NCBI GenBank assembly: GCA_963728055.1
Contig: CAVSIM010000007.1
Span: 75,540 to 99,539 of the forward strand
From: an uncultured delta proteobacterium
Lineage (GTDB): Bacteria > Desulfobacterota > Desulfobacteria > Desulfobacterales > SG8-13
Length of the DNA: 24,000 bases
Direction of reading: 5' to 3'
The notes below the pieces were generated by a model. It was not told the DNA's origin, made no database searches, and saw only the letters and a program-made list of their open reading frames with translations. Positions 6,187 through 8,128 of the stretch are shown in pieces. Position 1 is the stretch's first letter. Each line of letters opens with the position of its first letter. The translations under genes and the position numbers were made by a program.

Positions 6187-6480
6187 TCAACAGCAGTCTC
6201 CTTCTCCGCCACAGGTGGCGTTTTCCTTACCGTGGATCCAACCGGAGATGATGTAGGCCGCGCATCCGACCCCCGGGGTGACCCGAATTGCCTCAGTGGG
6301 GCAGTTCAGGGCACAGGCGCCGCATTCCATGCAACCGTCTTTATCCACCAGGCGCGCCTTTTTTTCATCCATGACAAATACCCCATGAGGGCATACGATG
6401 GCGCAGTTGCCGCAACCAACGCAGCATTCTTTATCATAGACCAGCGAGGTGGCGCCGGTAAGGTACCTGAAATCCTTCAT
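6187..6480 (-). CDS. hgcB: mercury methylation ferredoxin HgcB (2x[4Fe-4S])
   Basis: It is 97 aa, starts MKDFRYL, and has two CX2CX2CX3CP motifs (CVGCGNCAIVCP and CMECGACALNCP), an additional conserved Cys in PGVGCAAY, and a C-terminal vicinal CC (GDCC-stop). It lies 37 nt downstream of hgcA. Confidence 0.93.
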   Translation of the reverse strand: MKDFRYLTGATSLVYDKECCVGCGNCAIVCPHGVFVMDEKKARLVDKDGCMECGACALNCPTEAIRVTPGVGCAAYIISGWIHGKENATCGGEGDCC

Positions 6481-6517
6481 TGTTTTATCCTGAAACGGTG
6501 CTTGAATTTAGTGTTGC

Positions 6518-7723
6518 CTACGATCCCATGAATCCGGCGCTCACCCAGAGCGCCACGGCGGCCAGGGCCCCGAGCGCCTGGGCTGGGATGGCCTTGCGCA
6601 TCTCTTTTTCCACTCCGCTGGGGGATGTGTAGGGGGTTGACCCGGTAAAGTTCATGGTCAGATAAGAACTGACGGCCATGATAAAAAGCGTCAGGGCCAG
6701 AATTTCCAACCAGGCCAGCTGTCCGGCGAAGAGGGCCGATAGCAGGGCGCCGGCGGCGGCTCCCAGCACGGCGCCCTTGACGGCGAAGGCCCTGCCGGGC
6801 AGCCAGGGCAACAGGGCTGGCGCCAGGACAGCACCGGCTGCAATCGCCAGGATGAACGCCAGCAGGGCCGTTGCGCCCCGTGAGACGGCGCTGACGATCG
6901 AAAAAATATCTTGGCCCAGCCCCGACAGCAGAAACAGTGCTGGAACCAGGTACAGCGTCGGCTTACCCAGGTTGCCCAGTTCCACTGGGATCAGTTCAAC
7001 TCGCTCCCGAAGCGTGAAGGTCACTTTGCGCATGTCCGGCGTGGCCCTCATTTTGTTGTTCAAAAACTCTTTTAAATGCTTGGCGTGAACCGGGCCCCAG
7101 ACCACCTCAAACCCGCACAGGGTTTTAACTTGTCGCGCGGAGACACCCGTGGCGGAGAGCTGGGGCAGGACCAGGCGCCGGTGGGTGACGATATCCGCCA
7201 GCCCGGCGGCCTGCGCCTGGCAGGCCACCTCCGACGTGGAGAAAGTTCCTTTTCCGGCTGCGCACCAGACGTTGATGCCGCGGGTATTCACCACCAGAAT
7301 CCATGCGTTGACACCCGCAAGATGGGACCGCAGGACATCGAAGGTGAGTTTGTAGTTGGCGGTGACCAATACCGGCGATTGCGCATCCGGCGTACCAATG
7401 CCGTAAAGTCCGGGAGCAATGAGGTAGTTGTCCCGGCCGATGCCCAAACGCGCCAGTACGGTGCCCATGCGGTCCGCGCGGCGCATTTGACTGCGTACCC
7501 GGGGGACCGGACCCGCCGGTGCCGGCAGGAAATCTTCCACAAAGCCCAACATCCGGTAGCCGGGTCTCTCATGTGGAGAGGCAGGTTTGGGCGTTTGACC
7601 GCCGCAACAGGCCGACGCATCGTCTCTGACAACAGGAAAGTCCGCTTTCAGGCCGGCAGGAGCCTTTTGGCAGGAGCAGGAAAGTGGAAAAGGGTTTTTT
7701 TCTTCCGGGCAGCACGATGTCAT
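6518..7723 (-). CDS. hgcA: mercury methylation corrinoid protein HgcA
   Basis: It carries the diagnostic cap-helix motif in TRGINVWCAAGKGTFST, followed by a C-terminal domain of several hydrophobic helices. ATG 7723 has a GAGG SD and lies 35 nt after the arsR stop. The track ORF start at 7936 overlaps arsR and is rejected. A shorter start at ATG 7552 is possible. Confidence 0.92.
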   Translation of the reverse strand: MTSCCPEEKNPFPLSCSCQKAPAGLKADFPVVRDDASACCGGQTPKPASPHERPGYRMLGFVEDFLPAPAGPVPRVRSQMRRADRMGTVLARLGIGRDNYLIAPGLYGIGTPDAQSPVLVTANYKLTFDVLRSHLAGVNAWILVVNTRGINVWCAAGKGTFSTSEVACQAQAAGLADIVTHRRLVLPQLSATGVSARQVKTLCGFEVVWGPVHAKHLKEFLNNKMRATPDMRKVTFTLRERVELIPVELGNLGKPTLYLVPALFLLSGLGQDIFSIVSAVSRGATALLAFILAIAAGAVLAPALLPWLPGRAFAVKGAVLGAAAGALLSALFAGQLAWLEILALTLFIMAVSSYLTMNFTGSTPYTSPSGVEKEMRKAIPAQALGALAAVALWVSAGFMGS

Positions 7724-7758
7724 CGTTTGCCTCGCAAATCTGGTCGATATGTTGGGGT

Positions 7759-8049
7759 TTAGATTGACCCTGCGGTTTTTTTGAAGCTCTCTAAGATGTC
7801 TCTGTCCAAACAATAGCAGGTGCGGGGGCCTTCCACCTCGCCTTTGACGAGGCCTGAGGCCTTCAGCACTTTCAGATGTTGGCTCACGGTGGACTGAGCC
7901 AAAGGCAAGATTTGGACAATTTCGCCGCAGATGCAATGATCGATGGCCTTCAGGTGCTCTATGATCCGAATCCTGGCCGGGTGTCCTAACGCCTTGCAGA
8001 TCCGTGCAAAACTCCGGTAATCCAAAGACGATTCAACCTTTTGATCCAT
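7759..8049 (-). CDS. arsR: ArsR/SmtB-family metalloregulatory transcriptional repressor
   Basis: It is 96 aa with a winged HTH (ARIRIIEHL ... LAQSTVSQHLKVLKASGLV) and a CIC thiol pair (DHCICGEIV) at the position of the ELCVCDL-type metal site of ArsR proteins. It lies directly upstream of hgcAB on the same strand. Confidence 0.9.
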   Translation of the reverse strand: MDQKVESSLDYRSFARICKALGHPARIRIIEHLKAIDHCICGEIVQILPLAQSTVSQHLKVLKASGLVKGEVEGPRTCYCLDRDILESFKKTAGSI

Positions 8050-8088
8050 GGGCGATTCCGCATTGTTAGTGAAGAGTCTTGTATATTA

Positions 8089-8111
8089 ATCGTTTATCGA
8101 CGATAAACGAT
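8089..8111. promoter_or_regulatory. perfect 11-1-11 palindrome ATCGTTTATCG-A-CGATAAACGAT; candidate ArsR operator
   Basis: It is read directly from the sequence and lies 40-62 nt upstream of the arsR ATG. It overlaps the -10 hexamer of the minus-strand promoter candidate. Confidence 0.55.
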
Positions 8112-8128
8112 AGAATAATTGCTGTCAA
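8100..8128 (-). promoter_or_regulatory. sigma-70-type promoter candidate for arsR-hgcAB
   Basis: On the minus strand: TTGACA (8128-8123), a 17-nt spacer, then TATCGT (8105-8100). Confidence 0.45.

Follow-up and report, generated by a model that had tools for sequence, protein, structure and literature searches.

An arsR-hgcA-hgcB locus in an uncultured Desulfobacterales bacterium and its predicted arsenic-responsive control

No genetic determinant of microbial methylmercury production is known other than the gene pair hgcAB. Where an arsR gene stands directly in front of it, two questions arise: whether the pair is what it appears to be, and which signal the regulator would pass on to it. Both were addressed for a stretch of 24,000 nucleotides from an uncultured Desulfobacterales bacterium (NCBI GenBank assembly GCA_963728055.1, contig CAVSIM010000007.1, positions 75,540 to 99,539 of the forward strand; hereafter the window, numbered from its first letter), for which a prediction made from the sequence alone had described an arsR-hgcA-hgcB operon under metal-responsive control. 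We read the locus as a three-gene transcription unit behind a repressor related to those of arsenic operons, and give this overall description a probability of about 85%.

The locus is an unremarkable and correctly annotated representative of a well-known system, and both the system, as the original prediction acknowledged, and this instance are already known, because GenBank names the proteins accordingly. The exact HgcB sequence is deposited as "mercury methylation ferredoxin HgcB" and the exact ArsR sequence as "metalloregulator ArsR/SmtB family transcription factor", each from a Desulfobacterales bacterium metagenome-assembled genome (MAG). For HgcA, a cluster mate at 90% identity or more has GenBank entries of 401 amino acids (aa; MFZ0727290.1/MFZ1199760.1), of which MFZ0727290.1 is labelled "mercury methylation corrinoid protein HgcA". 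About 7,900 homologs were found at E ≤ 1e-20, and the closest named relatives belong to Desulfosarcina (HgcA 70% identical in D. alkanivorans PL12 and 63% in D. cetonica). Because Desulfobacterales rank among the main methylators of marine and estuarine sediments, the locus flags its host as a probable methylator; this flag itself adds nothing new. The added value is modest and lies in the regulation, where the hgcAB-linked ArsR can be tied to ArArsR, a characterised sensor of As(III) and methylarsenite (MAs(III)), and to an ATCGT-N6-ACGAT operator.

HgcA and HgcB

Profile searches with NCBIfam models placed both proteins in the mercury-methylation families that had been proposed from their motifs. 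HgcA scored 440.4 bits against HgcA_corrinoid (NF040863, cut-off 275) and HgcB 119.3 bits against HgcB_ferredoxin (NF040864, cut-off 99). The E-values of 3.8e-132 for HgcA, 4.7e-35 for HgcB and 1.4e-20 for the ArsR/SmtB match indicate that these matches are not due to chance. With the paralog models HgcA stayed under the cut-offs, reaching 213.7 bits for the non-methylating fused HgcAB-like family (cut-off 285) and 80.4 bits for CFeSP gamma (cut-off 306). HgcA genuinely belongs to the corrinoid protein family of mercury methylation.

The predicted NVWCAAGK cap-helix motif is present, and the corrinoid-binding domain that contains it is homologous to CFeSP chain 2h9a_A (E 1.4e-12, residues 80-224). 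In this alignment the conserved methylation cysteine, Cys154, lies opposite Thr374 of 2h9a_A (numbering counted from the printed alignment) and is the predicted lower axial cobalt ligand. This is the Cys-to-Thr374 relationship originally described for Cys93 of Pseudodesulfovibrio mercurii ND132. The two outcomes named in the original prediction as refuting it, low profile scores or a paralog assignment and a misaligned cap-helix cysteine, were therefore not observed. The CFeSP large subunit (AcsC/CfsA; PDB 2h9a, 2ycl, 4djd) thus shares the corrinoid-binding domain and its cap helix but differs in this threonine, in its N-terminal [4Fe-4S] and TIM-barrel domains and in having no membrane domain. 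The multi-helix membrane domain noted earlier for HgcA was recovered as five hydrophobic segments by hydropathy analysis and as five helices in the AlphaFold2 model (250-267, 276-307, 313-331, 338-360 and 368-398; mean predicted local distance difference test score (pLDDT) 72, predicted template modelling score 0.67). The HgcA of ND132 binds cobalamin with Co-S(Cys) lower ligation, takes its methyl group from S-adenosylmethionine, not from methyltetrahydrofolate, and passes it to Hg(II).

HgcB is the dedicated two-cluster ferredoxin of HgcA. Its motifs CVGCGNCAIVCP and CMECGACALNCP are the two expected CX2CX2CX3CP signatures (C20/23/26/30 and C50/53/56/60), and the cluster cysteines 20, 23, 26, 60 and 50, 53, 56, 30, plus Cys73, carry numbers identical to those in ND132 HgcB. 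Cys73, within PGVGCAAY about 12 residues past the second motif, and the terminal pair Cys96-Cys97 had both been pointed out and are both present, together with Cys90. In ND132, Cys73 and the C-terminal cysteine pair are functionally required; HgcB supplies electrons and re-reduces the HgcA cobalt, and its C-terminal cysteines have been proposed to deliver Hg(II).

We consider it highly improbable that the protein is an HgcA-like but non-methylating paralog of the CFeSP or fused HgcAB-like type and that the host makes no methylmercury. Besides the model scores, hgcB is a separate, unfused gene directly after the hgcA stop at 6518 (hgcB ATG at 6480), and the functionally tested residues are all in place, namely the cap-helix cysteine and, in HgcB, Cys73 and the terminal CC. 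A genotype by itself is no proof of activity, and a very close relative whose hgcA has no corrinoid-binding domain indicates that the gene can decay. Judged by its genotype, the host is a likely methylmercury producer.

The relative in question, Desulfobacteraceae MAG_Ve_Sed_19 (L004:1749-2423), is the closest species-representative genome, with ArsR 91% and HgcB 94% identical. Its hgcA has lost the corrinoid-binding domain and the cap helix through an in-frame internal deletion between approximately residues 26 and 198; the cause is gene decay or else an artefact of assembly.

HgcA also carries a cysteine-rich N-terminal tail (Table 1) that lies outside the NCBIfam HgcA model, whose start corresponds to residue 73, and that has pLDDT values below 50 over residues 1-58. 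We regard the tail as real and translated because M1, C39 and C40 never vary among 51 HgcA homologs of 60-87% identity, in which conservation of C4 reaches at least 90%; because a CCG motif about 14 residues before the conserved PGY recurs in Desulfobacterales and Desulfobulbales HgcA; because nucleotide differences are distributed over the three codon positions as 89/51/114, a pattern expected of coding sequence; and because the 401-aa GenBank HgcA of the same 90% cluster uses the long start. The CCG motif is missing from Desulfovibrionaceae HgcA, which begin near PGY, and the tail is a lineage-specific addition to HgcA. An alternative start at Met58 (344 aa, one public record), a call that omits the tail, was rejected since the 57 upstream codons are conserved in-frame in all homologs. 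When the N-terminal 60 aa were compared with 1.84 billion representative proteins, only 6 matches were obtained, all at N-termini and mostly in short or fragmentary proteins, which led us to reject a mobile or independent domain. An Fe-S site like that of the CFeSP N-terminal domain was also rejected as the leading idea for the six cysteines, because no pair but C39-C40 is invariant, the remaining cysteines differ in number and spacing, and disorder is predicted for this segment. A literature search for a cysteine-rich N-terminal HgcA extension found nothing relevant.

The ArsR regulator and its candidate operator

The gene upstream of hgcA on the same strand encodes, as predicted, an ArsR-family protein (NF033788, 72.8 bits, cut-off 55; PF01022, 40.5 bits, cut-off 22) with a winged helix-turn-helix domain. 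The CxC thiol site reported earlier is C39-I-C41, which precedes the recognition helix; a second pair, C78-Y-C80 in the beta-wing, and Cys18 had gone unmentioned. The two pairs are 36 residues apart (CxC-36-CxC), and none of the five cysteines varies across 20 homologs with 67-95% identity. A type 1 assignment was rejected: at the CxCxxC site in helix alpha-3 of the R773 repressor (Cys32, Cys34, Cys37 there) the protein reads C39-I-C41-G-E-I44. Because the third R773 cysteine is replaced by Ile44, as it is missing in ArArsR, the regulator falls outside type 1 and fits the ArArsR type. ArArsR is the "new type" ArsR described in 2025 from the arsRMC operon of Arsenicibacter rosenii SM-1, in which derepression by As(III) needs C41, C80 and C82 and derepression by methylarsenite needs C41 and C82 (Zhang et al. 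2025, PMC11868830).

According to published residue numbers, Cys39/41/78/80 correspond to ArArsR Cys41/43/80/82 with an offset of 2 (PMC11868830), and Cys18/39/41/78/80 correspond to Cys26/47/49/86/88 of ND132 ArsR2, the regulator shown to control hgcAB, with a constant offset of 8. Among the homologs, Bacteroidota and Desulfovibrionaceae proteins at 50-68% identity stand in for ArArsR (OR208258) and ND132 ArsR2 (F0JBE8). For comparisons across genomes we used 81 loci, comprising the 80 best from an ArsR-alignment scan with one genome per GTDB species, plus Desulfosarcina alkanivorans (L002). The four-cysteine site is kept in 29 of the 30 hgc-linked and 48 of the 51 other ArsR homologs, and Cys18 is present in 29 of the 30 hgc-linked versus 12 of the 51 others.

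Upstream of arsR, a consensus scan detected TTGACA-17 nt-TATCGT, with 10 of 12 consensus matches, as the sole minus-strand promoter-like site in 5900-8300; position 8128, at which the original prediction ended the locus, is the first base of its -35 box. The palindrome that overlaps the -10 box (Table 1) contains ATCGT-N6-ACGAT once without mismatch, at 8089-8104, and, overlapping it at 8096-8111, a copy with one mismatch. No second exact site was found in the window, where the other match has one mismatch, is intragenic and falls within chance expectation. The DNase I footprint of ArArsR, TTTTATCGTAATATTGCGATCACAATC, contains ATCGT-N6-GCGAT (PMC11868830), and this match validates the operator motif independently. 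The ArArsR site overlaps the -35 box, whereas the putative site here overlaps the -10 box.

The motif recurs across the 81 loci. ATCGT-N6-ACGAT lies within 300 nt upstream of arsR in 67 of them (29/30 hgcAB-linked and 38/51 others), and control spacings in the same regions were found in no locus for N5, N7 and N12 and in one for N14. The remaining 551 kb contain 9 further sites, all in non-hgc loci; at least 6 are just downstream of arsR and the others elsewhere in the same 8-kb locus, and these too are probably real sites. An extended form, ATCGT-NN-ATCGT-N6-ACGAT, occurs in 21 of the 30 hgc-linked versus 9 of the 51 other loci. A second site stands in front of the gene after arsR at L060:4301, L061:4310, L066:4281, L032:856, L013:4495 and L028:5146, which suggests a second operator inside those non-hgc ars operons; the hgc-linked loci have no second ATCGT-N6-ACGAT downstream of arsR.

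Whether hgcAB belong to the unit governed by this promoter can be judged from the gene order and the spacers. In 30 loci of species-representative genomes arsR is followed directly by hgcA-hgcB, in line with the earlier statement that arsR is a known neighbour of hgcAB, and a regulatory link has been published for ND132. These loci belong to Desulfobacterales, Desulfobulbales, Desulfovibrionaceae MAGs and one Spirochaete, and include the isolates Desulfosarcina alkanivorans, D. cetonica and Desulfoprunum benzoelyticum DSM 28570. For Pseudodesulfovibrio, co-transcription and ArsR-dependent control are published. On the minus strand between the genes of the window, the consensus scan found no promoter-like and no terminator-like site. 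The alternative that arsR is only an autoregulated neighbour and hgcAB are expressed constitutively from a promoter of their own, outside ArsR control, could draw on frequent descriptions of hgcA as constitutively expressed and of its expression as predicting methylation rates poorly, and a weak or non-sigma-70 promoter inside arsR would be beyond the reach of a simple consensus scan. Set against it are the 35-nt gap between arsR and hgcA with neither kind of site, the position of the window's sole operator motif upstream of arsR, the tight arsR-hgcA-hgcB order in 30 species and the co-transcription demonstrated in Pseudodesulfovibrio. We therefore hold this alternative to be quite improbable and retain the three-gene unit.

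The relatives of the regulator point to arsenic operons. In 33 of the 51 non-hgc relatives (mostly aerobes, 50-68% identity), arsM, acr3, arsD or arsA lies beside arsR, and NCBIfam models confirmed these neighbours as arsenite methyltransferases (333-364 bits, cut-off 263) and ACR3 (450 bits, cut-off 283). An ars gene within 4 kb was found in 1 of the 30 hgc-linked loci. In a neighbour-joining tree of ArsR, which is only indicative (76 columns, no bootstrap), 30 of 31 hgc-linked proteins fell into one clade of 33 leaves. Given the ars neighbours of its relatives, the shared four-cysteine site and the tree, the hgcAB regulator forms a sub-branch within a family of arsenic-operon repressors and has kept that family's DNA site. 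In the lone Spirochaete arsR-hgcAB locus (L038:4001-5710), ArsR clusters with ars-linked proteins of Bacteroidota type, outside the hgc-linked clade, and acr3 lies nearby; this repressor type may have been recruited to hgcAB there on a separate occasion.

The signal that may be sensed

In the mechanism that we propose, transcription would start at the sigma-70-type promoter (8128-8100), whose -10 box lies within the palindromic operator 8089-8111. An ArsR dimer on the palindrome would occlude the -10 box and repress arsR-hgcA-hgcB as one unit, and As(III) or methylarsenite bound at Cys39, Cys78 and Cys80 would release the repressor. The "metal-responsive control" proposed originally is too loose a term: the ArArsR/ArsR2 type answers to As(III) and methylarsenite, and Hg does not induce hgcA in ND132. 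The phrase is better read as arsenic-responsive derepression because of the ArArsR-type cysteines, the operator match and the ars-linked relatives. This proposal agrees with ND132, where arsenic and perturbation of the S-adenosylhomocysteine (SAH) cycle altered hgcA expression and Hg did not affect hgcA transcription. Control is most likely arsenic-responsive rather than mercury-responsive, and arsenic is, on balance, the probable physiological effector.

Alternatively, ArsR may sense Hg(II) or another soft metal (Cd, Zn, Pb), so that hgcAB would be induced by their own substrate, which the original wording "metal-responsive" implies. Four to five cysteines per monomer could provide a CadC-like tetrathiolate site, a possibility raised for ND132 ArsR2, and the uneven distribution of Cys18 between hgc-linked and other homologs hints at a modified specificity. 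This reading conflicts with the response of hgcA to arsenic and not to Hg in ND132 and with the genes under control of the nearest non-hgc relatives, which are arsM, acr3 and arsDA, not mer or czc genes; we consider it unlikely.

Several points weigh against the description given here. The match to ArArsR and ND132 ArsR2 rests on published cysteine positions and the footprint, not on an alignment. ND132 ArsR2 also responded to perturbed SAH metabolism, and a four-thiolate site could bind Hg(II), Cd(II) and Zn(II) as well (Gionfriddo et al.). A tblastn search with ArsM, Acr3, ArsD and ArsA found no ars genes in the window, which leaves arsenic control of hgcAB with no obvious physiological rationale. 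The minus strand 3′ of hgcB yielded no intrinsic terminator. For this organism, Hg methylation, co-transcription, binding of ArsR to the operator and the identity of the effector are predictions, and metal(loid) capture by the HgcA tail would be pure inference.

A broader idea is that in Desulfobacterota hgcAB occupy the place that arsM/acr3/arsDA have in non-methylators, behind the same ArArsR-type repressor and operator, and form part of an As(III)/methylarsenite stress regulon. Their native role might then be anaerobic corrinoid-dependent methylation or handling of arsenic or soft metalloids, with Hg methylation as a side reaction and the vicinal-cysteine tail (CC...CxC...CC, ArsD-metallochaperone-like) as a metalloid acquisition arm; we offer this as a speculation that we ourselves doubt. 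The tie to ArArsR and to an operator shared by at least 30 hgcAB-carrying species yields a testable prediction for the long-standing question of what governs hgcAB and for what reason these genes exist. On this view, methylmercury production could be modulated by exposure to arsenic in strains well removed from the model ND132. Within the searchable literature, no paper names ArArsR and hgcA together; the incremental points are the HgcA tail and the connection of the hgc-linked regulator with ArArsR and its operator.

Named systems, gene layout and neighbouring features

The best-studied counterpart is arsR2-hgcA-hgcB of ND132 (DND132_1054/1056/1057; Gionfriddo et al. 2022/2023), which has the same gene order and strand, the same spacing of five cysteines in the regulator, the same HgcB cysteine numbering, the cap-helix cysteine and the five-helix membrane architecture. 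HgcA here differs in being about 61 residues longer at the N-terminus, with the cap cysteine at 154 instead of 93 and six extra cysteines, and the host is a member of Desulfobacterales instead of Desulfovibrionaceae. HgcA is about 48-53% identical to homologs from Desulfovibrionaceae MAGs, ND132 itself being compared by published features. ArArsR resembles the present regulator in the CxC-36-CxC arrangement, the missing third R773 cysteine, the operator motif, autoregulation and its place as first gene of an operon, the last two presumably holding here as well. It differs in controlling arsM and arsC in an aerobe, whereas the present ArsR fronts hgcAB, and in an extra C-terminal pair, Cys107-Cys108, that the present protein lacks; the present protein has Cys18. 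The closest cultured relative found, Desulfosarcina alkanivorans PL12 (AP021874.1), has ArsR 75% and HgcB 80% identical, an HgcA of 402 aa with the same cysteine-rich tail, and the operator ATCGTATATCGTCGTTTTACGAT. Its locus is flanked by genes for an acetyl-CoA synthetase and an AraC/Ada-like regulator, that of the window by a transglutaminase-like gene and a sigma-54 response regulator.

The coordinates and strand of the three open reading frames (Table 1), and the gaps of 35 nt between the arsR stop and the hgcA ATG and 37 nt between the hgcA stop and the hgcB ATG, agree with those given originally. The ATG frame of hgcA is nested in a longer TTG frame extending to 7936. Each gene has a ribosome-binding site, with GAGG 6 nt 5′ of the hgcA ATG and AGGA 5′ of the hgcB ATG.

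Table 1. Features of the arsR-hgcA-hgcB locus (positions in the window)
Feature	Position	Strand	Description
arsR	7759..8049	-	96 aa, ArsR/SmtB winged-helix repressor, four-cysteine ArArsR/ArsR2 type
hgcA	6518..7723	-	401 aa from ATG, corrinoid methyl-carrier protein
hgcB	6187..6480	-	97 aa, 2x[4Fe-4S] ferredoxin
-35 box TTGACA	8123..8128	-	consensus scan, predicted arsR-hgcAB promoter
-10 box TATCGT	8100..8105	-	consensus scan, within operator palindrome
Putative ArsR operator	8089..8111	.	perfect 23-bp 11-1-11 palindrome ATCGTTTATCG-t-CGATAAACGAT, overlaps -10 box
HgcA N-terminal extension	7553..7723	-	residues 1-57; six Cys (C4 C5, C16, C18, C39 C40); predicted disordered
HgcA cap-helix motif	7250..7273	-	N151-V-W-C154-A-A-G-K158; read from sequence; invariant in 51 homologs
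HgcA transmembrane domain	6530..6976	-	residues 250-398, five helices; hydropathy and AlphaFold2

The 196-nt region past hgcB folds no better than shuffled sequence (z +1.37), and an Rfam scan turned up neither a riboswitch nor another RNA family in the vicinity of the operon. Its only hit, elsewhere in the window, was a selenocysteine tRNA gene at 327-424 (-) (anticodon TCA, RF01852, 74.6 bits), from which it follows that the host uses selenoproteins. Convergent with hgcB, in the region 4600-6005, is a gene for a sigma-54-dependent response regulator (NtrC/AtoC-like, 464 aa, +) with no adjacent partner histidine kinase; the 3′ end of this gene (stop 5994) is overlapped by a hairpin resembling a terminator, at 5982-6005 (+). 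On the other side, a divergent gene at 8244-8948 (+) encodes a transglutaminase-core protein, a neighbour that is not conserved in D. alkanivorans, followed by genes for a DUF6765 protein at 9184-10200 (-) and an alpha/beta-hydrolase-like protein at 10292-11125 (-). A metagenome contig in ENA is 99.89% identical over 1-17551 of the window. The open reading frame of 482 aa at 11925-13373 (+), which matches no Pfam family and is predicted to be membrane-rich, appears there as two genes (216 and 213 aa); with 17 mismatches and 2 indels between the two assemblies, one of them probably contains a frameshift.

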